64,000 nucleotides of DNA from Kiritimatiellia bacterium (GTDB taxonomy: Bacteria; Verrucomicrobiota; Kiritimatiellia; CAIKKV01; CAITUY01), in NCBI GenBank assembly GCA_038330175.1, contig JBBQNS010000004.1:67-64066 (forward strand), given 5' to 3'. Below, piece by piece: positions 6,329-59,168 of the stretch (the stretch's first letter is position 1; every line of letters starts with the position of its first letter). A program made the translations under genes and the position numbers. The notes below the pieces were generated by a model that saw nothing but the letters and a program-made list of their open reading frames with translations, searched no databases and was not told the origin of the DNA.

Positions 6329-6363
6329 CAAATTTCTTCGATCACTTTACTAACGACGTTTAC

Positions 6364-6639
6364 CCTCCTCCTCGCTGCGCGTGAGGACACGCGCAGCTAC
6401 ACCAATGCAATACGCACCTTTCGTTTGGCCCCTTGTAGCGGCGCATGTCCCCATGCGCCGAATTCTCTAGCAGCGTGTCGAACTTGCACAGCCTTCGGAC
6501 TCAAAAGTCACCACCGGCGGAGACCGCCGGCTCCAAAAATTTAAAGCGCGGGCTATGCTAGGTGAATTAAGCAATGGGCAACATGTGACGCTTGATTGCT
6601 GGCGCAATTTTATTCTGGAGCCGGCGGTCTCCGCCGGTA
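6364..6639 (+). repeat. structured ~280-nt repeat, copy 1 of 2 (direct repeat with 10419-10697)
   Basis: About 90% identical to copy 2. It contains the hairpin gctgcgcgtg-agga-cacgcgcagc, the hairpin cggcgcatg-tcccc-atgcgccg, and two self-palindromic arms accggcggagaccgccggctcca / tggagccggcggtctccgccggt about 80 nt apart. Confidence 0.85.
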
Positions 6640-6799: not shown

Positions 6800-8086
6800 T
6801 CAGGGAGCGCAAAAGCGGTAGAAACGGACCGGAGCGTTTGTCCACTGTGTGTCGCTGAAATAGGATAAACCGGCGGTCAGAGTGTTGGTGCTCAACGGGA
6901 ACCAAGCTGGTGTTGCGAGATTGGAACAAGCCTGAACAACGATATTCACGTTGGTGGGACCGCTGATGGTGAAGCCGAAGCCATTTTGACCCGCACCGAA
7001 GAAACCATCGTTCTCCGCATGCGGGTTCCATAGGATGGTCTGACGATCACAGAACGTCACGTTCCACCCCATGGTTTCCGACATGTAATAGACTGTCGCA
7101 TTTTCAGAACTCGAAAAGACCGAAAGACCTGGATTCGGGGCATCCCCTTTGAAATAGACTTCCTTCATGTTGCCACATGCTTCGAATGCAAAGTCCCCAA
7201 TGCTGGAGACGCTGTTGCCCATCGTGACGCTGGTCAGTTCGTAACAACATCGAAACGTATTCACCCCTATACGTTTGACGGAATCAGGAATCGTGATGCG
7301 AGTTAGGCCGGTGCATGCGGAAAAAGCTTCGTCACTAATATTGGTGACGCTCGAAGGGATGACGATACTGGCGAGGCTAGAACACATAGAGAACGCGAAG
7401 TCCCCAATATTAACAACGCTATCGGGAATAGTGACGTTGTTTAGACTGGCGCATCCTTCAAAGAGATAGTTTCCAAGATTTGTGATGCCGAAGGATATTG
7501 TGACGCTGGTCAGGTTGGGGCAACGAGAAAACACGGCGATCCCAATGGACTTAACGTTCGAAGGAATCATCATGGTGGACATGCCGCAGTAAGAGAAAGC
7601 ACCATCCCCAATACTAACGACACTCTCGGGAATTGTGATAGCAGGCAGATTGATGCAGCAGAAAAACGTATTTTCACCAATGCTGGTCAAGTTGTTGGGA
7701 AGCATCACGTTGGTCAGGCTGATACACTGATAAAATGCAGAACCCCCAATGGTGGAAACGTTCGAGGAAATCGTAACATCTGTCAGATTGGCACAATCAA
7801 AGAAAGCACCACTTCCAATATTGGTGACACCGGCTGGAGTTGTGTAGCTGCCCGCTTTGCCTCCAGAACATTGGATTAATGTTGTTTGGTTTTGATTGAA
7901 CAGAACCCCATCCACGCTGCTATATGTAGAGTTCAGAGCATCCACTGTTATCGCATTGAGGGTGCTACACGAACGGAACGCGCCGCCCCCGATACTGCTG
8001 ACGGTTTCGGGGATCGTGACATTGATCAGGCTGGCGCATCCAAGAAACGCGCCACTCCCGATGCTGGTTATGCCGTTAATGACGAT
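6800..8086 (-). pseudogene. BspA-family leucine-rich-repeat surface protein, 5'-truncated (no signal peptide)
   Basis: Repeated ~23-aa LRR units (..ITSIGDGAFSYC..LTSVTI..) typical of BspA-like LRR proteins. The N-terminal ~85 codons of the called ORF are antisense to the methyltransferase fragment and do not look like a leader. Confidence 0.55.
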
Positions 8087-10418: not shown

Positions 10419-10697
10419 CCCTCCTCCTCCCTGCGCGTGAGGACACGCGCAGCTACACCAATGCAACACGCACCTCTCGTTCGGCCCCTTGTAGCGGCGC
10501 ATGTCCCCATGCGCCGAACCCTCTAGCAGCGTGTCGGACTTGCACAGCCTTCGGACTCAACAGTCACCACCGGCGGAGACTGCCGACTCCAATGATTGAA
10601 AGCGCAGGCTATCCTCAGTGAATTAAGCAATGGGCAACACGTGACACTTGATTGCTGACGCAAATTTTCTTCTGGAGCCGGCGGTCTCCGCCGGTAA
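10419..10697 (+). repeat. structured ~280-nt repeat, copy 2 of 2
   Basis: Direct repeat of 6364-6639 with the same internal hairpins and inverted arms. Confidence 0.85.
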
Positions 10698-17961: not shown

Positions 17962-17982
17962 CCAGAAGACTCGCATAATTCG

Positions 17983-18113
17983 CCCTGCCCACGCGGCTCA
18001 GCCTCTTCGACAAGCTCAGGGCAGGCAAGCTTCGCCCTCCAGAAGAACATGATAGACAGAGATGAGATGTTTCTTTTGGAGGGCGATGCTTGCCGGGCCG
18101 CGTGAATAAAAGG
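17983..18113 (+). repeat. long-hairpin palindromic element, copy A of 3
   Basis: ccctgccc-acgcggctcag..gcttcgccctccagaaga-[loop]-tcttttggagggcga..gccgcg-tgaataaaagg. Shared with 21373-21486 and 50568-50686 (inverted). Confidence 0.8.
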
Positions 18114-18166
18114 TGTTGACTGCATTTCAGCTTTACTGATTTCCAGTATATGTTTATCCTGCTCTT

Positions 18167-21297: not shown

Positions 21298-21372
21298 GGC
21301 GCGTTTAGGCGCCCAGTGCTCGGTATGGATCCAAGTCCTCGCCTAAGGACGTTCCGACCACGGTGAACTCAC

Positions 21373-21486
21373 ATGATTCACCCTGCCCACGCGGCTCAGC
21401 AAGCTTCGCCCTCCAGAAGATATGATCTATAAGGGCAAGATTATTCTTCTGGAGGGCGAAGCTTGCTGAGCCGCGTGAATAAAAGG
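21373..21486 (+). repeat. long-hairpin palindromic element, copy B of 3
   Basis: Near-perfect ~30-bp stem cacgcggctcagcaagcttcgccctccagaaga / tcttctggagggcgaagcttgctgagccgcgtg with a ~25-nt loop. Confidence 0.85.
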
Positions 21487-21496
21487 CGCTGTAGTT

Positions 21497-21561
21497 CCTT
21501 TGTGTGCTTCGTGAGCTTCTGTTAAATTTCTTCTTCTTGGTTCCGGTTATGCCGGGTTAGG
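21497..21561 (+). repeat. conserved intergenic motif family 3, copy i of 4 (cctttgtgtgcttcgtgagcttctgttaaatttcttc..ttggttccggttatgccgggttagg)
   Basis: Shared core gcttcgtgagcttctgttcaaatttcttc with 45330-45385, 53610-53655 and 59088-59130. Confidence 0.75.
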
Positions 21562-24228: not shown

Positions 24229-25360
24229 TTTCAGAATTCATCTTACGGGGACTTGACCGCTTTTCAGTTGCGGAATGTTTCTTCATCCGTGTGATGATCA
24301 TCGACGTCCTCAGGGCATTCTCGAAGTCAAGATCAACAGGGGCGCCCAACTCCACCGCCCGCTGATAATGCTCCTGCGCATTCGGGACATCCGGGGGATT
24401 GATAGTGATTAGTATTTGCGCCAAATTGTAATGAGCTTCGGCAGAGTTCGGCGCGATGGCTAATGATTTGTCCATGGCATCGCGTGCTTTGCCAATTTCG
24501 CCCAGGCCCATATAGGCCGTACCCAACGTCAAGAGCGCATCCGCATTTTTAGCACGCCAGACATCGAATGGAGACATTAACTTAACGGCATCATTAAACC
24601 GACTATCGCGGCAATCAGCCACTGCGAGAAGTATGACCAAATCGGTTTCCGACGGCATCAGCTCGACCGCCTCGGTCAGCAATTCAATGGCCGGGATCAA
24701 ATCGTTCACCTTCATCATGCGGTTAGCCTCGGACTTCACCGCAGACACCACCGCTCGATAAAGAACATTGGACTCATTGCCGAGACTTCCTCCGGCTTTG
24801 CGTAACTTGGACTCCAACTTGACCATCTTGCGCTGCAGGGCTTGATGGTCTTTAGTGGACTCATTCAACGCTTCTTTAAGGCGAGTCACTTCATCTGCCA
24901 TTTGCTTTGCCGGCGTATCATCCCCGGCCATTTTTATAAGCGCTAGTTCCGCCTTCATATCACGAAGTTCACTCAATAAACCTTGAAGGCGCGCGACATG
25001 ATTCGTTGTTCCAGCGTCCTTATTCGCACCAACTTCTGCATCGGGCACCTGCGGCTTTTCCAGCAACACCAGCGCGTTCTGGCACTCTGCGACACGATAG
25101 TCGATCATGGTGGTCTGCCAACCGGGATACTCCGCTTTGAGTTTCGCATACGCCCCAAGTGCTTCCCGATAGGCTTTCTCCGCATCGACATTATGATGTT
25201 CCGCACGCGCCATTTCTGCGTCAACAACTGACATATAGGCCTTTTTGAGCCATTCCCCGGCCTGAGGCATCACATTGGTTACAGACTCTGCTCCCGCACA
25301 GTGAAGCCCCCAACCCAGCATCAGACCCAGAACCAAAAGTAGTTTAACTATCTGTTTCAT
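24194..25360 (-). CDS. TPR-repeat secreted/lipoprotein
   Basis: Signal peptide MKQIVKLLLVLGLMLGWGLHCAGA, coiled-coil and TPR-like repeats. Confidence 0.6.
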   Translation of the reverse strand: MKQIVKLLLVLGLMLGWGLHCAGAESVTNVMPQAGEWLKKAYMSVVDAEMARAEHHNVDAEKAYREALGAYAKLKAEYPGWQTTMIDYRVAECQNALVLLEKPQVPDAEVGANKDAGTTNHVARLQGLLSELRDMKAELALIKMAGDDTPAKQMADEVTRLKEALNESTKDHQALQRKMVKLESKLRKAGGSLGNESNVLYRAVVSAVKSEANRMMKVNDLIPAIELLTEAVELMPSETDLVILLAVADCRDSRFNDAVKLMSPFDVWRAKNADALLTLGTAYMGLGEIGKARDAMDKSLAIAPNSAEAHYNLAQILITINPPDVPNAQEHYQRAVELGAPVDLDFENALRTSMIITRMKKHSATEKRSSPRKMNSEIRNSGAKTGTP

Positions 25361-25456
25361 ATTTTTATTTCGTCCTTCACCATATACCTCTGAGCCGCTG
25401 AATCAGTGAGCCCCTAATTTATAAGGTCAATAGTCTTTCATACAACAACTAAAATC

Positions 25457-25607
25457 AGCAGTTCTCATTATGGACCAGTTCGATCAATCATTCTCGGAGC
25501 GGAACGTGTAAACGTTCCGGAAATGCCCGGAATCGTCAACCACCTTCGTCAAGCTTCGGCGTGTCATGCCGATTCCGCTCCAAAAAAAATCATAATGATA
25601 ATTCACT
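25457..25607 (+). repeat. structured intergenic element family 4, copy 1 (carries a 32-nt insertion relative to copy 2)
   Basis: Shares about 110 nt with 31607-31728, including the perfect palindrome CGGAACGT-gtaa-ACGTTCCG (25500-25519) and nested inverted repeats gagcggaa/ttccgctc and ctcattatg/cataatga. Confidence 0.8.
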
Positions 25608-25720
25608 TGCCAATCTACCATCTCGTAGGCTTCGACAGCAGAGCGGACGACACGGAGGTCGTCCCTCCATATTGCAAGACCGTCTGCTCTGGAGGTTTTG
25701 CAAGGGCCTCTAGATCCATC

Positions 25721-26404
25721 TCAGGCCCGTGCGGGCGGAATCAAGCGGTCAAAATGAGCTGGCAGCTCGGCTTCAAAAGACATTCGTTTTCCGCTAAAAG
25801 GATGATCAATGGACAGGGACCGGGCGTGCAAGGCTAACATCCGGTGGGGATCTTTTATATTTCCGTATTTTCGGTCCCCCACAACGGGATGTCCCTGATC
25901 CGCCAAATGAACTCGAATTTGATTTTTACGCCCCGTCAGCAGGGTAATATCCAACAGACTGAATAGCCGGACTTCCTGGTTTACCCGGTAAGAGGTATGC
26001 GACAACAAGCCCTTCGTCGGATTGGGCGTTGAATAAACACGAAAGGCAGAATTCTCTGCCAAATAAGAAGTGATCGTCCCCTCTTTTTTAGCCAATATCC
26101 CATGAACTACGGCCAGATAGTGCTTTTCAGTTTTATCCCAATTCCCCTGAAGCTTCCGCTTGGCTTCTTCGTTTTTGGCAAATACCAGCACTCCGGAAGT
26201 ATCACGATCTAAGCGGTGCACAATAAAAATCCGCTCCCGCGATTTCGCGCACCCTTTGCGAACATAATCGGTCAATAGATGATACGCCGTACGGGTTTGC
26301 TCATCGTCTGTTGCAATCGTCAAAAGCCCTGCGGCTTTGTCGACTACCAAGATGTCGCGATCCTCATAAAGAATCGTTAGGCCTTGAGGTTGATGTCGTT
26401 TCAT
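25721..26404 (-). CDS. RluA-family 23S rRNA/tRNA pseudouridine synthase
   Basis: ..ILVVDKAAGLLT..HRLDRDTSGVLVFAKN.. catalytic Asp motif. Confidence 0.85.
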   Translation of the reverse strand: MKRHQPQGLTILYEDRDILVVDKAAGLLTIATDDEQTRTAYHLLTDYVRKGCAKSRERIFIVHRLDRDTSGVLVFAKNEEAKRKLQGNWDKTEKHYLAVVHGILAKKEGTITSYLAENSAFRVYSTPNPTKGLLSHTSYRVNQEVRLFSLLDITLLTGRKNQIRVHLADQGHPVVGDRKYGNIKDPHRMLALHARSLSIDHPFSGKRMSFEAELPAHFDRLIPPARA

Positions 26405-28857
26405 CGGACTCCCCTTGAATAATTTCCCTCATACCCACCTACTCGATGGCCTTGTCGCAAGGCACGCCAGACCTCACATACTTTGGCCGGTTCGTAGTGG
26501 CGATTGATAAAGTCAGCCCGCACATACCGGACGCCTGCTTTTTGCAATCCGGTCAGCCGCCCTGCCAGTGAAAAAGGGACCTGGTTTATAGCCAGCGTAC
26601 GGCACCCATGCTGAATCATCCGGATCGTTTCGCCACTACCGGAATCCCACTCGCGTTCGGAAGTCCGGCAATTCGGGCTTGCAGGACACCGTTGGGCTTG
26701 TGCCGCCAAAGCACAATTCTCGGAGATAAATAACGGAGTATCTTGATAGACAATCACGGTCGCCTGCTCGCTGAATTGCTTTACCAGCGAAAGCATGTTT
26801 TCACTTCCATCTTCCGGAGAACACGTGAAACGACTGCATCCCATTGCCAATACCTGTTGAGCTGCCGATCGATTGGTAACATAGACCGGCCAATCGGCCG
26901 TAAGGGAGCTATCATCCGTTCCAACACCTACCGGAGCGCATGGCTTATTTAGAAGCGGCCAGGACGAGAGTGAGGCACACTCCCATCGCGCCCACCCGTC
27001 AGCCTGCAAAGCCTTGATTTTCTCCTGAAGCTCTGAACGCTCCCAATCACGCATCAATGCCGGAAGCGCCAAGCGTATTTTACCCGGCCCCACCTGCTCA
27101 CGCCACTTCATCAACCCATCCCGTAATTCAGGCCATGCATCGCGTTGGATTTCCACTACAAGTTCGCATAGGTTCTGTAGATCTTCGGCTTCTAAGGCAG
27201 AAAGATGACTCAACCGATCTGTTTTGATTGACCATAAAAGACCTGATTTTTTTCCTGAAACCGAAGCGATAACCGGCCTTTCAGCGACCTGCACCGCCTG
27301 CAGGGAGCGCTGGCGATGTGCCGCCACCGATTTGGATAGCTGAGACATCACTTCACGGCGTAGTCGATTGAAAACAGAAACAGGAATGAACCGGCTATCC
27401 GGATTGTTAAAAACAAATCCTGCCAATTCAAATTCAGTTTCACCTAATTTTTCGAATGAGGTTTGAGCCGCCTTCAACCCGGCTTCTGCATCACGGCTGG
27501 GATCAAATGGCCCCGGGATGATGGCTTTGACGGAAAGTTCTTCGCAGTCAACCAGACAAGCCATAGCTTCAAGTTCATTCGCAGAAGCGTTGATCACCAC
27601 GTTTACAGCCATCCTGACGCGATATATCCCGGGCTTCGGGCGTGCAAAGCGGTACTGTTGTTTGACGGTCTGGGAGGACGAGCAATACAGGGGTGCCCCT
27701 GGCTGAATCAGCGGATGTTCAGGGGGTAAGCTTACTTCGACCATGCGCTGGGCAGGAACCTCAAAAACATCCTCTTGCGGTTTCCCCTGGGTATTCACCA
27801 ACCTCAGATGGTCGACCGGAAACCCGAAGGGACGTCCCCGTCCGGGAACATCGGTCTGGATCCCATCATGTCGTTCAAGACGCCGTTGCGTCTTGAATTG
27901 GACCCACTCATTAATTCCCCGCCGGACGACACCGGCGACGATCCCGATGGGGGCGCCACGGTGACCAACCACCTCGCTATCCGTCACCTCACGGTTGTGG
28001 GGTGAATTCAAATAGAGATCTGTCCAGGGGCGACTGAAAATGGTTTTAATCTCCTCCTCTGAGGCGCGTTTTTCCAGGACAGAAAGCCGCCCCTCGAGAA
28101 GTTTACGGTAGTACTGAGTTACCGCCGCAACATAGAGCGCACTTTTCTTTCGCCCCTCAATTTTGAAGCTGAAAACCCCCGCCTCACGCAGCTTGATGAC
28201 ATCCCCGGTCAAGGCGAGATCTTTCATCGAGAAAGGATAGGCTTTCGTCTGCCCAAATGTATCACGGCATGGATAGGAACAGCGGCCCCGGTTCCCGCTC
28301 CTCCCGCGCAACATGGATGAATAGAGGCAAAGTCCGCTGTAGGAGTAACACAGTGCCCCATGAATAAAAACTTCTACGTCGAGCCCTCCCTCGCGAACAA
28401 TGTCAGCCATCTCTTTTAGCGTCAATTCGCGCGCCAGGGTAACCCGTTTGAAGCCAAGTTCGCGAGCTGCCTTGGCCCCCGCGATATTGTGAATCGCCAG
28501 CTGTGTGCTGGCGTGCATTTCCAAACAGGGAAAATATTTATTGATTAGCCGGGCAATTCCGAGGTCTTGAACGATAACAGCATCCACTCCGATGGCATTA
28601 AGGAACGCTAGCGTTTCGATAGCCTCATCCAATTCACTATCTTGAATCAGAGTATTGAAGGCCACAAAAACGGAGCGTCGTGGGGTGGAGGAATGTGCAA
28701 ACCCTAAAATTTCACTAAGATTTTCGGGCAAGAAATTGACCGCCTCGGCACGGGCAGAAAACCGTTGCAGGCCCAGATAAACCGCATCGGCGCCATGATA
28801 AAAAGCGGCATAAGCGGCATCCAGATCACCGGCAGGTGCAAGTAGCTCGGTTCGCAT
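26401..28857 (-). CDS. peptidase U32 family protein, long form
   Basis: N-terminal U32 collagenase-like domain (..LELLAPAGD.., ..EVFIHGALCYSYSGLCLYSSMLRGRSGNRGRCSYPCR..) plus a long C-terminal extension. Confidence 0.8.
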   Translation of the reverse strand: MRTELLAPAGDLDAAYAAFYHGADAVYLGLQRFSARAEAVNFLPENLSEILGFAHSSTPRRSVFVAFNTLIQDSELDEAIETLAFLNAIGVDAVIVQDLGIARLINKYFPCLEMHASTQLAIHNIAGAKAARELGFKRVTLARELTLKEMADIVREGGLDVEVFIHGALCYSYSGLCLYSSMLRGRSGNRGRCSYPCRDTFGQTKAYPFSMKDLALTGDVIKLREAGVFSFKIEGRKKSALYVAAVTQYYRKLLEGRLSVLEKRASEEEIKTIFSRPWTDLYLNSPHNREVTDSEVVGHRGAPIGIVAGVVRRGINEWVQFKTQRRLERHDGIQTDVPGRGRPFGFPVDHLRLVNTQGKPQEDVFEVPAQRMVEVSLPPEHPLIQPGAPLYCSSSQTVKQQYRFARPKPGIYRVRMAVNVVINASANELEAMACLVDCEELSVKAIIPGPFDPSRDAEAGLKAAQTSFEKLGETEFELAGFVFNNPDSRFIPVSVFNRLRREVMSQLSKSVAAHRQRSLQAVQVAERPVIASVSGKKSGLLWSIKTDRLSHLSALEAEDLQNLCELVVEIQRDAWPELRDGLMKWREQVGPGKIRLALPALMRDWERSELQEKIKALQADGWARWECASLSSWPLLNKPCAPVGVGTDDSSLTADWPVYVTNRSAAQQVLAMGCSRFTCSPEDGSENMLSLVKQFSEQATVIVYQDTPLFISENCALAAQAQRCPASPNCRTSEREWDSGSGETIRMIQHGCRTLAINQVPFSLAGRLTGLQKAGVRYVRADFINRHYEPAKVCEVWRALRQGHRVGGYEGNYSRGVR

Positions 28858-28873
28858 CAGACGGCCACTCCAC

Positions 28874-29845
28874 TCACCACCAACCCCGGCGTTTCAGATA
28901 AAAAAACAGGCCCCCTGTTGAGAACAAAGTTATGAACCAGACCCAGACCCACCCATATTGGCTTTCCGAACTCGGCCAATGCTTAATGTTCATGCCGTAA
29001 TAGCTGGTCAAGACGAGGGTGGGCATACAAAGGGTGGCCATCACGGTCAATACCTTGATCACATGATTCACCTGCATCTGCTGGAGGTTGAGATGCACCT
29101 GTAAAACGCCCGTGAGCGAATCCCGTGCATTTTCAGCTAATGAGCTGATCCTGACCAATTGATCCAACAAATCGCGATAGTAAGGCAACATGTGGCTGCG
29201 CACAATTTTAAGTTCACCATACGCCAACCGGGCAATTGTTTCGCGTTGTGGCCAGGCGATCTGGCGCAGGCGCTGAACCTCACCCTTCAGCTTCATGACA
29301 TCGTTCAACACATCTTTGGACTGGTTCACCATGATGCTTTTTTCAAGATCAGAGATTTCGACCGAGATCTCCTCGAGTGCGGGGGCATACTCCTCAAGTA
29401 AAAAATCGAGGATCGTGTAAGTCAAGCGATCCGGGGCGCGAGCCACCGTCGGTGCATTTTTTAACACACGTTCCACAGCGGCATTCACACATCTCAGCGG
29501 TTGGCGATGGTAGGTCACTAAAAAGTTTTTACCGATGAACATATCGAGTTCATTAGCCAGAAGTTCACCACCGAAATAAGTCACGGCATGAATGACTAAA
29601 AAGAGATAGCCTTCATATTCCTCAACTTTTGCGCGATCGCTAGGTGTAAAACAGTCCTCAATGGCCAAAGGATGGAATTGGAAAACCCCTTCAAGAACGG
29701 ATTTGGCATCCTCATCTGAGCACTCCCCGACGTCTACCCAGAATTGAACGCCATCATCTTTAAGCACAACCTTGAGTAAATCCAAATCAAGATCCTGACT
29801 GATCAGGCGTCCCTGCGTTTGGTTGAAAACAAATGAACGAATCAT
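28874..29845 (-). CDS. corA: magnesium/cobalt transporter CorA
   Basis: Two C-terminal TMs with the GMN motif (YGMNIKHWP). Confidence 0.85.
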   Translation of the reverse strand: MIRSFVFNQTQGRLISQDLDLDLLKVVLKDDGVQFWVDVGECSDEDAKSVLEGVFQFHPLAIEDCFTPSDRAKVEEYEGYLFLVIHAVTYFGGELLANELDMFIGKNFLVTYHRQPLRCVNAAVERVLKNAPTVARAPDRLTYTILDFLLEEYAPALEEISVEISDLEKSIMVNQSKDVLNDVMKLKGEVQRLRQIAWPQRETIARLAYGELKIVRSHMLPYYRDLLDQLVRISSLAENARDSLTGVLQVHLNLQQMQVNHVIKVLTVMATLCMPTLVLTSYYGMNIKHWPSSESQYGWVWVWFITLFSTGGLFFYLKRRGWW

Positions 29846-30456
29846 AATTCTATTTTCGCTTTCACTTTTCGTCCACGTTTATCAAAAAACTCAAGTTGGG
29901 GGTCTTTGACGATATTATAGACCTTAAGAATACGTAGGATCTGTAATAGGTCGGATTTTTCATAATTCCGGTTACCCCGCACTGACGAGACCAGCTCCTG
30001 TAGCATCGTACGGAAAGGCAGGACGCCATCAACCCCTCGCTCTCTCAAGCCTTCCAATGTTTTCGTCTGCAGCTCCACGGATACCGGTAATTCGGGAATA
30101 CAGAGAATGACGGCTAGCGGCTCACCGCCTAAACGGGCCGCCCCAGCCAAACGCGCCGAGCGCTCAGCATATCTCAGGATTTCAGGAGCTTGCTCATAAG
30201 AGCCAGAATAAAAACGCTCAGAATGCCCACCGCGCACACCCACTAAAGCTCGACGAATGCCTTTTAAATGCGACCCAGACCAAACCATCTCCGTGGGGAC
30301 CACATGCTCAAGGATTTGTGGATGAGTGACTAACAAGTCCAACTCTTCCTCAATCCGCTTATTCCGTTTGGCCGACACGTATTTACAAGGCTGATTAACG
30401 AAATACCCTAAGTGTTCAAAATAGTCCCTGACAATTTGTTCATTTACAGCAGACAT
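29842..30456 (-). CDS. hypothetical protein
   Basis: The internal Met MSAVNEQIVRDYFEHLGYF.. has an AAGGAGG SD and begins just after the aroB stop. The longer ORF-track start would overlap aroB by ~190 nt. Confidence 0.4.
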   Translation of the reverse strand: MSAVNEQIVRDYFEHLGYFVNQPCKYVSAKRNKRIEEELDLLVTHPQILEHVVPTEMVWSGSHLKGIRRALVGVRGGHSERFYSGSYEQAPEILRYAERSARLAGAARLGGEPLAVILCIPELPVSVELQTKTLEGLRERGVDGVLPFRTMLQELVSSVRGNRNYEKSDLLQILRILKVYNIVKDPQLEFFDKRGRKVKAKIEL

Positions 30457-31528
30457 TCCAAACCTCCTTGAGGACGGAATCATCCACCTCACAACCGACC
30501 ACTGCCGCCCCCAGTTTCTGGGACAATACAAAACGCGGGCGCTTTTTAAGGGTCTTCTTGTCAGACAACATCGCTTCGCGAAGATGGGACCATGAGGTTT
30601 GCGCATTCGCCTCCGGCTGGACCGGTAAACCAAGCGCCTGGAGCAAATTCGAGACTCTCACGGCATCAGTGTGGGCAAACCCCGAAACCTTAACGGAAAG
30701 ATGGGCGGCATAATGCATCCCCATGGCCACGGCCTCGCCATGTAACCAACGTCCATACCCACCCGCCTTTTCCAAGGCATGCCCCAGAGTGTGGCCAAAA
30801 TTGAGAATAGCGCGCGGCCCGATTTCCCGCTCATCCATGGCAACCACTTCAGCTTTAATTTCGCAACAGCGCGCTATTACGGATTCCAGCAACCCTGGAT
30901 CACGTCTAAGCAACTCGTTGGTGTTTTTTTCTAACAAATGGAAAAAAGCCGCATCCCAAATCACTCCATATTTGACCACCTCGGCTAGTCCTGAGACATA
31001 TTCGCGTTGGGGGAGCGTTTTAAGCAGATCCAAGTCCGCGTCCACTTCGATGGGCTGATAAAAGGCGCCTACCAGATTCTTGCCTTGCTCTAAGTTAACT
31101 CCGGTTTTGCCGCCAACGGAACTATCCACCAGGGCCAGCAACGAGGTTGGGATCTGAACAAATCGAACACCCCGAAGGTAAGTAGCCGCGACAAATCCAG
31201 CTAAATCACCTACCACTCCACCCCCAAGCGCGACAACGAGGCAATTCCTATCCAAACCTGCAGAAGCCGCCTTGGCGTACAAAAACTCAACCCATTTCAT
31301 GGATTTTGTTTCCTCACCAGCAGGGACTACTGCACTGATACAGGAGATTCCCCTCGCCTCCATCTGCTTGCGAACCGCTTCCCCATGGATTGCATCCACA
31401 TTGGAATCTGAAATGACGAGTGCTTGGATGTTCGACTTATCATCAATGGCCGAAACAAAAGTCATTCCCTTCCCGATATGAATGGGGTACGAACGTTCCG
31501 CAAGTTTTACCTGAATTATTTTTGCCAT
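30440..31528 (-). CDS. aroB: 3-dehydroquinate synthase
   Basis: DHQS motifs (..GGGVVGDLAGFVAATYLRGVRFVQIPTSLLA.., ..LNFGHTLGHALE..). The start is trimmed to MAKIIQVKL. Confidence 0.88.
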   Translation of the reverse strand: MAKIIQVKLAERSYPIHIGKGMTFVSAIDDKSNIQALVISDSNVDAIHGEAVRKQMEARGISCISAVVPAGEETKSMKWVEFLYAKAASAGLDRNCLVVALGGGVVGDLAGFVAATYLRGVRFVQIPTSLLALVDSSVGGKTGVNLEQGKNLVGAFYQPIEVDADLDLLKTLPQREYVSGLAEVVKYGVIWDAAFFHLLEKNTNELLRRDPGLLESVIARCCEIKAEVVAMDEREIGPRAILNFGHTLGHALEKAGGYGRWLHGEAVAMGMHYAAHLSVKVSGFAHTDAVRVSNLLQALGLPVQPEANAQTSWSHLREAMLSDKKTLKKRPRFVLSQKLGAAVVGCEVDDSVLKEVWNVCCK

Positions 31529-31606
31529 ATCAGTCCTTCCACCCTCCGCGAACAGCGGGGTCATGGGGCTTAATCTACCTTACTCCAAGAACAGAGTCAA
31601 CGCGGG

Positions 31607-31728
31607 CAGCAGTTCTCATTATGGCCCTGTTCGATCAATCTTTCTAAGAGCGGAACGTGTAAACGTTCCGGAAATGCCCGGAATCGTCACCGATTCCGCT
31701 CCAAAAAAGTCATAATGACAATTACTGC
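31607..31728 (+). repeat. structured intergenic element family 4, copy 2; flanked by 9-bp direct repeat caacgcggg (MITE-like)
   Basis: Contains the same palindrome CGGAACGTgtaaACGTTCCG (31651-31670). Imperfect terminal inverted repeats cagcagttctcattatg / cataatgacaattactgc. caacgcggg lies on both sides (31598-31606 and 31729-31737). Confidence 0.7.
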
Positions 31729-31763
31729 AACGCGGGAGGAAGCATGTGGACGCAACGCATAGG

Positions 31764-33215
31764 TTATCCATGATCGATTACGGGCAATTCCACATGAAAC
31801 TTTGTTCCTTGCCCGACTTCACTCTGAAACCATAACGCTCCGCCATGATCTTTAATGATACCATGACTTATGGACAAACCTAGCCCAGTTCCTTTGTCAC
31901 GTGACTTAGTGGTAAAAAACGGATCTATAATCCGCTCCCTGAGAGCTACCGGAATGCCGGCTCCATGATCTTCGACCGTCAAACGCAACCAGGAATGCGG
32001 AGCCTCCCCTTCAATCATGGGTATTCGGGCTGCATCACTTCCCGTCGTTTTAGCCACAATAATAATTTTTTTATCTGCATCATATCCGGCATACTTTTCA
32101 TTGAGAGCATCTCGGGCATTAGTGAGCAGATTCATAATCACTTGCTGGATCTGCTGAATGCGACATTTGATTACAGGAAGGTCTTCAGGGACTTCAACTT
32201 CCAAAATAATCTGGTCGTGCCGCAAAACCGTTCTTACCAGTGAAAGAGTACCCTCAACAATCTCGCATAAACGAGCCGGTTCATATTTCTGTTTTTCAAC
32301 CCGTGCGAATGAAAGAAGATTTTTTACGATCGTGGCAATACGCTGGGATGCCTTGCCTATTCCTGTGGCAAATTCGGCAATCGGAGTTTCTGGTCCGACC
32401 GACTCGCTAATCATCTGAGCGTAGCCCATGATGCCCATGATCGGATTGTTGATTTCGTGCGCCACACCACTTGCAATCGTTCCAATGGCTTCCAATTTCT
32501 GGGACTGAATCAGTTGCGCCTGTAGCAAGTCCCTCGACTCCTCAGCACGTTTGTGTTCGGTAATGTCACGTATCACCTCAATTGCACCACAACGCTGACC
32601 ATCACGGTTAAACAACGGCGAAGCCACACCCCAGAGATAAGCGCCTTTGCCGCCATTTAGGAAAGGCACAAAGGATTCGGCAATAACCGTCTCGCCTTTT
32701 CTTTGGACATAACTAAAAGTGGCTTCCACCACCGTCGACGGAGTATCGAGCAAATCAATCAAGGTTGCCCGCCTTTCACCGTGGAACGGTTCGGCATAGG
32801 CGAAATCACCCTGCCCAAGCATGGCCTCCTTCTTAACAGCGGTCATGACTTCGCAAGCGTGATTCCAGGCAATAACCCGTTTATTCTGATCAATTACAAA
32901 AGTGGCATCGGGGAGAAATTCAATCACATCCACAAGCCGTTGTTCCGCCGCCTTCATAGCGGCTTCGCCCCGCTCACGAGCCCACACCTCAATGCGCAAA
33001 AGAGCTGTCAGCAAGAGGGCGGTAACCACTACGAAGGCAAGGCCTTTGTAAATAGACCAATGCATAATGGCAATGGGATCAGTGAACAACACAGCCAAAA
33101 AACGGTCTGACAAGATGATCCATAGCCCGGCAAAAAGGACATAGGGTAGAACTACCCGAAAGATCATTTGCCTCATTAGTCGGTTCATAGGCTCTTTCCC
33201 ATGATGTTTACTCAC
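31764..33215 (-). CDS. membrane-anchored PAS sensor histidine kinase (orphan)
   Basis: N-terminal TMs, PAS, H-box ..GVAHEINNPIMGI.. and HATPase (..DHGAGI.., GTGLGLSI). Confidence 0.85.
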   Translation of the reverse strand: MSKHHGKEPMNRLMRQMIFRVVLPYVLFAGLWIILSDRFLAVLFTDPIAIMHWSIYKGLAFVVVTALLLTALLRIEVWARERGEAAMKAAEQRLVDVIEFLPDATFVIDQNKRVIAWNHACEVMTAVKKEAMLGQGDFAYAEPFHGERRATLIDLLDTPSTVVEATFSYVQRKGETVIAESFVPFLNGGKGAYLWGVASPLFNRDGQRCGAIEVIRDITEHKRAEESRDLLQAQLIQSQKLEAIGTIASGVAHEINNPIMGIMGYAQMISESVGPETPIAEFATGIGKASQRIATIVKNLLSFARVEKQKYEPARLCEIVEGTLSLVRTVLRHDQIILEVEVPEDLPVIKCRIQQIQQVIMNLLTNARDALNEKYAGYDADKKIIIVAKTTGSDAARIPMIEGEAPHSWLRLTVEDHGAGIPVALRERIIDPFFTTKSRDKGTGLGLSISHGIIKDHGGALWFQSEVGQGTKFHVELPVIDHG

Positions 33216-39230: not shown

Positions 39231-39318
39231 GAGAAAGCTGAAAGCAGAAAGCTGAAAATTGAAATAAGACAGATAGGAGAAAGCAGAAAACAGAAAGCTG
39301 AAAGCTGGAAGCAGACAC
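39231..39318. repeat. low-complexity GAAAGCTGAAAG-type repeat block (left flank of four-helix-bundle cassette)
   Basis: Iterated agctgaaag/cagaaag units. This is the reverse-complement counterpart of the block at 39797-39885. Confidence 0.75.
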
Positions 39319-39372
39319 AAGCCCCTTGGTATGGCCTTAAAATTTATGCAAAAGTCATTCATCATTCCTCTT

Positions 39373-45063: not shown

Positions 45064-45433
45064 GATTAAAAAATAACATCACATGGATATGATGTAAACT
45101 TAAAAAACGGAATGCTGAAGAGGCACTTGTAAAACCTAGAATCCAGGGAAGCGTAAAGTGCCAAGTTATTTTCCGGCGAGATCAGGAAGTCTGAGGCTGC
45201 GGAGGACAAGAGTGCCTGGCTTACTGTTGAGGGCTCCTCAGTACGGTGGGCACCTACTCACTTACTCACGGCTGCCAGCGGAAGAAGTTGTTCTTGCCGA
45301 TTGCGCCTGCGGCGTACTCGCCGCTGGCGCCTTTGCGTGCTTCTGTTCAAAATCTTCCTCTTGGCTCCGGCTATGCTGGGTTAGGATCATGGGCATGATT
45401 GGTGAGCACCTGCTTCCAGGCCTCCACGAGAAA

Positions 45434-50567: not shown

Positions 50568-50686
50568 CACCCTTTATTAGCGCGGCTCAGCAAGCTTCGC
50601 CCTCCAGCAGAAAAATCCTGCCTTTGTAGATCATATTCTTCTGGAGGGCGAAGCTTGCCTGAGCCGCGCGGGCAGGGTGAATCAGG
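50568..50686 (-). repeat. long-hairpin palindromic element, copy C of 3 (inverted orientation)
   Basis: caccctttattag-cgcggctcagcaagcttcgccctccag..ctggagggcgaagcttgcctgagccgcg-cgggcagggtgaatcagg. It is the reverse complement of the A/B consensus, including the terminal tgaataaaagg and ccctgccc blocks. Confidence 0.85.
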
Positions 50687-50919
50687 CGGCCCATCATCAG
50701 ACATTCTTGCGCAGTGGCAGTGAGAGATCATCAATGGATAATAGGGTGTGTTGCATAAGGAATTTCATTAAGGCTTAGTCCGATCGTGATCCACGAGGCG
50801 CGATCAGCCAGCTGCTCGACCTGGTTCATAAGCGCTAGACGGCAGGAGCGTCGGCGCCGGATCGCCCGCCTGTTGCGGTAACATCGCATAGGCAATGCCG
50901 GACAGCGTCTGTGCACAAA

Positions 50920-53585: not shown

Positions 53586-53748
53586 GGTTCCTGAGGATGC
53601 TAGTGTTTTCTCTTTGCGTTCTTCACGAGCTTCTGTTCAAATTCTTTCTTCTTCGAATCATGACCAAGATGCGATTGATTCAAGTCGTAAGGCACTAGGA
53701 AACTCTTATGAAACTACCCACCCGTAATCTATTCACTGGTGCAGGTTC

Positions 53749-58953: not shown

Positions 58954-59168
58954 TCCTATTTTCACGACTGGACACTGAAAAATATTTTGAACAGAAGCTC
59001 ACCAAGAACGCGAAGTTAAGGATTCATCCCACTGCGGGCATGCCCGCCGGAGTCCGGCATAGGCGGGAGGTGGTAGCAAATCCATTCTCCTTTGTGGGCT
59101 TCGTGAGCTTCTGTTCAAATTTCTTTCCCCGCGAAACGGGTGCTGGCCCCCTAAGTGCCCGATTAGTC

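Follow-up and report, generated by a model that had tools for sequence, protein, structure and literature searches.

Two intergenic repeats in an uncultured bacterium are very probably copies of a MITE bearing the ends of a DDE insertion sequence

Two intergenic spacers of the window, as we call the whole 64-kb stretch of DNA analysed here, are occupied by related, highly structured repeats, and the question they raise is whether such repeats are mobile DNA or a regulatory structure belonging to the neighbouring genes. [quoted passage not shown] The relatedness of the two copies was upheld by alignment: a block of 83 nt (25456-25538 in copy 1 and 31607-31689 in copy 2) is 94% identical, a right arm of about 35 nt is also common to both, and the copies have an identical core of 39 nt that none of 100 shuffles matched. 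Both lie on the + strand within intergenic spacers. Copy 2, which is complete, starts at 31607 as annotated and ends at 31727 instead of 31728, giving a + strand element of 121 bp that reads CAGCAG...ATTACTG. Copy 1 had been assigned to the correct locus (25457-25607), its edges being placed here at 25456 and, approximately on the right, at 25609 (+ strand, about 154 bp); its right end is degenerate. Only these two copies were found within the window by profile search. The element has no coding capacity, the sole open reading frame overlapping copy 1 (25523-25837, + strand, 104 aa) being a mechanical call, and its sizes are below approximately 600 bp, as for a bacterial MITE.

From left to right, the element consists of an 18-nt end (CAGCAGTTCTCATTATGG), a left extension of about 23 nt, a first hairpin unit (hp1), a spacer of 6 nt (AAATGC), a second hairpin unit (hp2), a right extension of about 8 nt and the inverted end. 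The nested inverted repeats described in the first-pass annotation were all recovered, namely the 8-4-8 palindrome CGGAACGT-GTAA-ACGTTCCG (+ strand, 25500-25519 in copy 1 and 31651-31670 in copy 2) and the inverted pairs GAGCGGAA/TTCCGCTC and TTCTCATTATG/CATAATGA. The palindrome belongs to hp1, which in copy 2 spans 31648-31671 on the + strand (GAG-CGGAACGT-GTAA-ACGTTCCG-G). Absent from that description was a second perfect hairpin, CGGAATCG-TCAC-CGATTCCG (31679-31698 in copy 2), carried by hp2 (31678-31701, + strand, C-CGGAATCG-TCAC-CGATTCCG-CTC). The internal insertion claimed for copy 1 is present, although it measures 30 nt (25539-25568, + strand) and not 32, and these extra nucleotides sit exactly within the hp2 loop. 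The reverse complement of hp2 equals hp1 across the outer stem (GAGCGGAA/TTCCGG), the two units differing at two inner stem pairs and, in the window, also at one loop base (GTGA vs GTAA). Because of this match in the outer stem, the interior consists, as read from its nucleotide sequence, of one palindromic unit of 24 nt arranged as an inverted doublet. Two alternative folds are possible for it, a pair of hairpins or a single long fold-back, and the predicted folds of copy 2 are far stabler than those of shuffles on both strands (z = -6.7 and -6.6).

As the annotation had stated and Pfam matches confirmed, both copies lie between genes of the minus strand, copy 1 between those of a pseudouridine synthase and a TPR protein and copy 2 between those of a PAS histidine kinase (HK) and 3-dehydroquinate synthase (aroB). 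An intergenic position between co-directional genes and a stable predicted fold would equally suit a leader RNA acting in cis, a gene for a small RNA or a terminator serving the flanking operons. Syntenic relatives were located from the window aroB protein (aroB identity of 80-85%), and the element is missing from the orthologous intergenic regions of five of them: the HK-aroB spacer measures 97-103 nt in L044-L047 compared to 235 nt in the window, and the rluA-TPR spacer 57-69 nt in relatives compared to 360 nt. At the aroB site, the alignment (A2) leaves a clean gap for the element, the relatives' sequence being continuous across it. No copy of the element was detected by profile search of approximately 90 kb of the relatives' loci.

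Copy 2 is flanked by a direct repeat of the 9-mer CAACGCGGG, the flanks matching at all nine positions (chance probability of about 4e-6). The 9-mer and its left occurrence (31598-31606) had been correctly annotated; the right occurrence, read base by base, lies at 31728-31736 and not at 31729-31737. At the aroB site of relatives the 9-mer is single, as an exact CCCGCGTTG in L042 and as CTCGTGTTG in L044 and L045. The flanks of copy 1 match at only one of nine positions, and no shifted or indel-tolerant version of a duplication was seen there. These results demonstrate that the insertion of copy 2 is lineage-specific and later than the split from the relatives. The comparison of orthologous sites that the annotation had proposed, with its empty sites and its single 9-mer at aroB, thus favours a MITE.

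The same filled/empty-site pattern is therefore an argument against a conserved cis-RNA, as the relatives are without the element in their orthologous spacers though they keep the genes and the promoter. An element retained at the same loci of related genomes and covarying as an RNA structure, the alternative named in the annotation, is not what these loci hold. Apart from one tRNA, Rfam gave no match, either at gathering thresholds over the whole window or at E<=10 over 25300-31900. Intrinsic terminators were sought at both loci and the idea of a terminator was rejected, with 0 terminator-like sites and no T-run after any stem: on the + strand hp2 is followed by an A-run, and on the - strand a T-run precedes hp2. 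In other genomes, moreover, the element occurs in both orientations relative to the genes. A leader RNA, small RNA gene or terminator is accordingly hardly credible.

The insertion of copy 2 bears on the aroB promoter. The aroB gene (30440-31528, - strand, 362 aa) has its real start at 31528 and is preceded by a sigma-70-like promoter, TTGACT-17-TAGATT (31572-31600, - strand), that is conserved in relatives. Copy 2 would have inserted exactly at the upstream edge of the -35 box. The TTG of this box falls within the duplicated 9-mer and was regenerated by the duplication, and therefore the -35 hexamer is intact and the promoter would have survived. A promoter-like site directed towards aroB, TAGAAA-17-CATAAT (31618-31646, - strand), is also found within the MITE as a consensus match only; its outward-facing CATAAT is part of the terminal inverted repeat (TIR). 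Upstream of aroB in one relative (L042, approximately 7800-7900), a palindromic element of about 100 nt that is not this MITE (CTCTC.G.GTGTGGGGCGGATGTCCCCATCCGCC ... GGCGGATGGGGACATCCGCCCCACACCGAGAG) adjoins the same CCCGCGTTGACTC promoter edge. Insertions seem to have landed in this spacer repeatedly.

The ends of the element are those of larger elements. The left TIR of copy 2 (CAGCAGTTCTCATTATGG; 31607-31624, + strand) is identical at 18 of 18 positions to the ends of full-length insertion sequences (IS), and the right TIR (CAGTAATTGTCATTATGA; 31710-31727, - strand) matches the left one at 14 of 18, the agreement over the terminal 19 nt being 15 of 19. A metagenome scan with the 18-mer CAGCAGTTCTCATTATGG retrieved at least 120 loci. 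Among the matches listed, the 18-mer has an inverted partner in 54 cases, 46 of them at a distance of 73-352 bp and 8 at 1436-1780 bp. The 9-bp flanks of 34 of these 54 end pairs match at eight or more positions, with none of 53 shifted controls reaching 7/9. The MITE-size elements with CAGCAGTTCTCATTATGG ends fall, again among the matches listed, into 12 clusters with unrelated interiors. The window pair forms a cluster of its own. Of the metagenome matches listed, all selected by the TIR, 48 are MITE-size elements with paired TIRs, and the window interior is absent from every one of these.

The IS of 1.44-1.54 kb with the same ends contain a single open reading frame each, of 428-448 aa. Seven loci (L065, L072, L075, L079, L092, L125 and L152) hold elements of 1.44-1.78 kb, each with a transposase open reading frame or a tblastn match, and the frames of 428-448 aa were identified in L072, L075, L092 and L152. 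A complete IS of 1443 bp is found in L075, where it has the ends CAGCAGTTCTCATTATGA and CCATAATGAGAACTGCTG and a perfect 9-bp duplication, ACACTGTAT. These results demonstrate that IS and MITEs with CAGCAGTTCTCATTATGG ends make 9-bp duplications. The transposases of L072, L075, L092 and L152 are just 43-60% identical to one another, yet their elements have the same 18-nt end, a conservation that is biased by the picking of one end per IS through an exact CAGCAGTTCTCATTATGG search. No transposase homologue was detected by tblastn with four transposases in the 64-kb window or in the loci L001-L040 that bear the core of the element, and the TIR-like sites found when a partner IS was sought in L001-L040 all belong to MITE copies. 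At another locus (L129, 1139-3001), a 134-bp MITE of the same TIR superfamily is present four times within 1.9 kb, each copy with its own perfect 9-bp duplication; this stretch is a local insertion hot spot.

Regarding the class of the partner transposase, the open reading frames match DDE_Tnp_1 in eight of nine cases and DDE_Tnp_1_assoc in seven of nine, below curated cut-offs: the DDE_Tnp_1 scores are 16-22 bits against a cut-off of 23, and the match to NCBIfam IS4_2 is weak, 20-25 bits against a cut-off of 152. The curated ISAs1 model gave no match among the partner transposases, and a PDB profile search with the transposase alignment returned no solved structure at E<=10. In the alignment (A4), the motifs LDGT, GDDL and RWKIEN are invariant and contain candidate D, D and E residues, and the N-terminal region is ISAs1-like through its match to DDE_Tnp_1_assoc. 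ISAs1 elements have 8-10-bp duplications and CAGGG ends. The partner IS resembles the ISAs1/IS4 type in its single open reading frame, candidate DDE motifs, ISAs1-like N-terminal match, CAG-starting ends and 9-bp duplications, and is unlike it in that its transposase scores below the curated cut-offs and matches no solved transposase. Homologous protein clusters number more than 7,900 in metagenomes, mostly on contigs of 1.5-2 kb and labelled 'hypothetical'. The best matches on annotated plasmids are cyanobacterial proteins named 'ISNCY family transposase' (42-50% identical, with alignments covering 95-99% of the length and E down to 8e-144); ISNCY, the RefSeq name on these homologues, means 'not classified yet'. 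The IS copy of the Nostoc punctiforme plasmid pNPUN02 has the ends CAGCAATTCTCAT(C/T)ATGAG, compared to CAGCAGTTCTCATTATGG here, and a 10-bp duplication, CCCAACTCAG; the Nostoc end CAGCAATTCTCATTATGA agrees with CAGCAGTTCTCATTATGG at 16 of 18 positions.

Several known MITEs offer points of comparison. The possibility of folding the whole element into one long hairpin is common to Correia- and ERIC-type MITEs. Correia elements duplicate TA, unlike the 9 bp duplicated here. Probably the closest named relative is Nezha, likened to the present element by its published description and not by sequence. Nezha is described as a cyanobacterial MITE (Anabaena variabilis, Nostoc sp. and N. punctiforme) of 130-170 bp, with a TIR common with ISNpu3 (PMC3184786). 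ISNpu3 of N. punctiforme is its proposed partner, flanking direct repeats and a stable fold-back are reported and mobility is inferred from filled and empty orthologous sites (Zhou et al. 2008, as summarised in PMC3184786 and PMC6042816), a 10-bp direct repeat being given for one copy (PMC6042816). So described, Nezha and the present element are both short and non-coding and have in common TIRs of an IS, direct repeats, a fold-back and filled/empty-site evidence; in addition, the partner transposase found here is 42-50% identical to the ISNCY-annotated one of N. punctiforme. The description also provides a lead that the ISNCY-annotated IS of N. punctiforme is possibly ISNpu3. Nezha differs in its interior and host group, and the direct repeat of 10 bp in its reported copy and in the Nostoc IS copy contrasts with the 9 bp of the window and of 34 metagenome pairs among those listed. 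The Chunjie MITE of Geobacter uraniireducens (PMC3184786), likened by description only, also has direct repeats of 9 bp and TIRs of about 20 bp, is predicted to fold very stably and is inserted between genes of an operon; it is unlike the present element in being A+T-rich and 178-235 bp long, compared to 121 and about 154 bp here.

The interior was followed beyond the window by scanning species-representative genomes with GAGCGGAACGT-N4-ACGTTCCG, which gave 40 loci. About 25 of them are in one Lentisphaerae MAG (CAIQIC01), three in a Verrucomicrobiia MAG and single ones in a Victivallales and a 'Myxococcales' MAG; the remainder are chance matches in coding sequence. No match to the core was found in the viral contigs scanned, the motif CGGAAY-N8-RTTCCG is absent from approximately 700 kb of other loci, and no relevant paper was retrieved when the literature was searched for the end and core sequences as exact strings. 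The Lentisphaerae copies have the same architecture with a variant end, CAGCAATT(C/T)GCATTTTGG, and 9-bp duplications can be seen by eye in several of them (L007, L016 and L030). Around core copies without standard ends, alternative TIRs were found in L006 (the pair CCAGACC(C/T)CTGCCA) and, as a weak 11-match pair, in L033, and in none of the others. About half of the Lentisphaerae copies contain approximately 21-34 nt in the hp2 loop, like copy 1, so the long loop of copy 1 may be either an insertion or the ancestral state, the change having run in either direction. The module of about 21-34 nt in this loop (around GCTTCGCAGGGCAAGC / GCTTGCCCTGCGAAGC) occurs in both orientations relative to the MITE (L010, L019, L023 and L040 compared to L015 and L031), as would result if it had been inverted between the arms of the hairpin or acquired independently. 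One contig of the same organism as the window (L041 1-71, Logan SRR19962012) breaks off within the element, in the stretch that separates hp2 from hp1, as is typical of an assembly graph at a multi-copy repeat.

These copies bring in another reading, in which the interior is an exapted structured module, either a protein-binding site or an RNA or DNA hairpin kept by selection, and the transposon ends are its vehicle. The double hairpin provides four CGGAAC/GTTCCG half-sites, 14 bp apart, that can be arranged as two 8-bp hairpins or as the long fold-back. Most columns of the hp2 arms are at least 90% conserved among the copies aligned to the profile, compared to 50-70% for the ends of the same copies, and several copies whose TIRs are decayed or missing keep an exact hp1. 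This conservation of hairpin arms above that of TIRs is the reverse of the expectation for an element constrained purely by its transposase. The hp2 stem reads CGGAATCG/CGATTCCG in the window, L017 and L027, compared to CGGAACCG/CGGTTCCG in the Lentisphaerae MAG, and has thus undergone one compensatory change, with L006 as a mismatch intermediate. The strong predicted fold and the position of copy 2 directly at the aroB promoter edge also agree with a selected module. However, the MAG copies were all retrieved by the exact hp1 pattern, which biases hp1 conservation, and the covariation is perhaps a single event. Any fixed spacing of half-sites is disrupted where the hp2 loop has taken up about 21-34 nt or the spacer contains an insertion, and deletion at the hairpins can yield truncated copies without selection. 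The orientation of the copies and their distance to genes are mixed: nearly all are intergenic, and the flanking genes are divergent around nine, co-directional around seven and one, and convergent around five. The relatives of the window, finally, are without the element at both loci. An exapted module carried by transposon ends thus appears quite improbable.

A related proposal, that the doublet GAG-CGGAAC-NN-GTAA-NN-GTTCCG-G is under selection of its own, being either required in cis for transposition or exapted by the host, is a minority reading that we hold unlikely, because the conservation of hp1 is biased by the search pattern and truncation at the hairpins could give the solo units. 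If true, the cis role would be that of a fold-back or a protein-binding enhancer for this IS group, host exaptation would correspond to a DNA or RNA hairpin spread next to promoters, and either would explain how, in lineages of 52-64% GC, the arms persist longer than the transposase-binding ends and are better conserved. The more specific suggestion of the first-pass annotation that the 20-bp palindrome is an operator found no support, the copies being scattered, with neither their orientation nor their distance from genes uniform. It was rejected, as about 21-34 nt can be accommodated in the loop of the sister hairpin and no positional or spacing constraint is apparent; the relatives keep the same gene pairs and the promoter without the element.

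The layout of the interior, an inverted doublet of a short GC-rich palindromic unit of 24 nt with a short spacer, is also that of a REPIN, and solo units occur in the Lentisphaerae MAG, so that spread of a REP/REPIN-type repeat by a RAYT (a Y1 enzyme, IS200/IS605-like) in place of a DDE enzyme deserves consideration. REPINs are without TIRs and without target duplication, and they are RAYT-dependent. The present element, by contrast, has 9-bp duplications and 18-bp TIRs identical to those of a DDE IS, which are not REP features. Furthermore, the unit does not end in a conserved GTAG or CGTC tag, the unit starting with GAGC and GTAG being confined to the spacer in a subset of copies, and most solo units keep flanking homology to the MITE and therefore look like MITE remnants. 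Spread by a RAYT is very improbable on these grounds.

Taken together, the two repeats are very probably copies of a gene-less, non-autonomous DDE transposon, that is a MITE, mobilised in trans by an IS of approximately 1.45-1.55 kb. The lineage-specific insertion of copy 2, its 9-bp duplication and the identity of its left end with an IS end bear out the MITE proposed in the first-pass annotation, with empty sites in five relatives and ends that match IS making 9-bp duplications. In the mechanism that we propose, the 18-bp TIRs would be binding sites of a DDE_Tnp_1-like transposase supplied in trans, which would cut the target with a 9-bp stagger whose repair would produce the 9-bp duplication around copy 2. 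The ISNCY-annotated group of IS would be the one that moved the window copies, and the GC-rich double-hairpin interior would fold back on itself and thereby draw the two ends close to each other; its hairpins would perhaps be stable in read-through RNA as well. Copy 1 appears to be an older or damaged copy and is probably no longer mobile. Copy 2 may still be mobile, its present-day mobility being uncertain because of the four mismatches between its right and left TIRs over 18 nt. Counted against a MITE are the small number of copies in the window, only two, the absence of a transposase of this family from the 64-kb window, the missing duplication and damaged right end of copy 1, the failure to find the window interior in the TIR-paired MITE-size metagenome elements listed, the stronger conservation of the hairpin arms than of the TIRs, and the scores of the partner transposase under the curated Pfam and NCBIfam cut-offs. 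The element is nonetheless a genuine MITE and ordinary bacterial mobile DNA, an interior better conserved than the ends being a mild oddity, and the current understanding of transposition is unchallenged by it. It provides a clean case of recent MITE insertion in an uncultured bacterium, with the filled site, the empty site, an exact duplication and the class of the partner transposase. A by-product of the analysis, of wider use than the two copies, is an abundant and poorly annotated IS/MITE superfamily defined by a single 18-bp end, the CAGCAGTTCTCATTATGG-ended MITEs having at least 12 unrelated interiors in metagenomes of lake, peat, soil and groundwater. Such elements break assemblies and sit on promoters, and their annotation therefore matters for MAG quality and for intergenic regulation.

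Other repeats were observed in the window. Adjoining copy 1, a segment of about 116 nt (25605-25720) is not present in relatives and has inverted repeats of its own (CAGAGCGGACG / CGTCTGCTCTG and TTGCAAGACC / GGTTTTGCAA). It includes a 27-nt hairpin motif, GCGGACGACACGGAGGTCGTCCCTCC, common to L006 of the Lentisphaerae MAG; apart from this motif, no copy of the segment was found elsewhere. Possibly this segment is another small insertion, in which case it could account for copy 1 being without a duplication. A second repeat family of about 125 nt (17969-18118, 21367-21491 and 50575-50690) has near-perfect inverted arms of 31 bp (CGCGGCTCAGCAAGCTTCGCCCTCCAGAAGA and, after a loop of about 25 nt, TCTTCTGGAGGGCGAAGCTTGCTGAGCCGCG) and an outer inverted pair (ATTCACCCTGCCC / GGGCAGGGTGAAT), a sequence organisation that probably denotes another fold-back MITE family; the upstream gene differs in relatives, so that the comparison with them is uninformative. 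A 34-nt motif, TCCTTTGTG.GCTTCGTGAGCTTCTGTT.AAATT, lies at 21496-21529, 53610-53643 and 59088-59121, with a weaker occurrence at 45318. A direct repeat of 249 nt (6363-6611 and 10419-10667) is 92% identical between its two copies, which are 4 kb apart and are each followed by AATTTT.TTCTGGAGCCGGCGGTCTCCGCCGGTA, for which positions 6606, 9814 and 10663 were also recorded. Finally, a purine-rich stretch at 39231-39331 has a periodicity of 14 nt (GAGAAAGCTGAAAGCAGAAAGC...).
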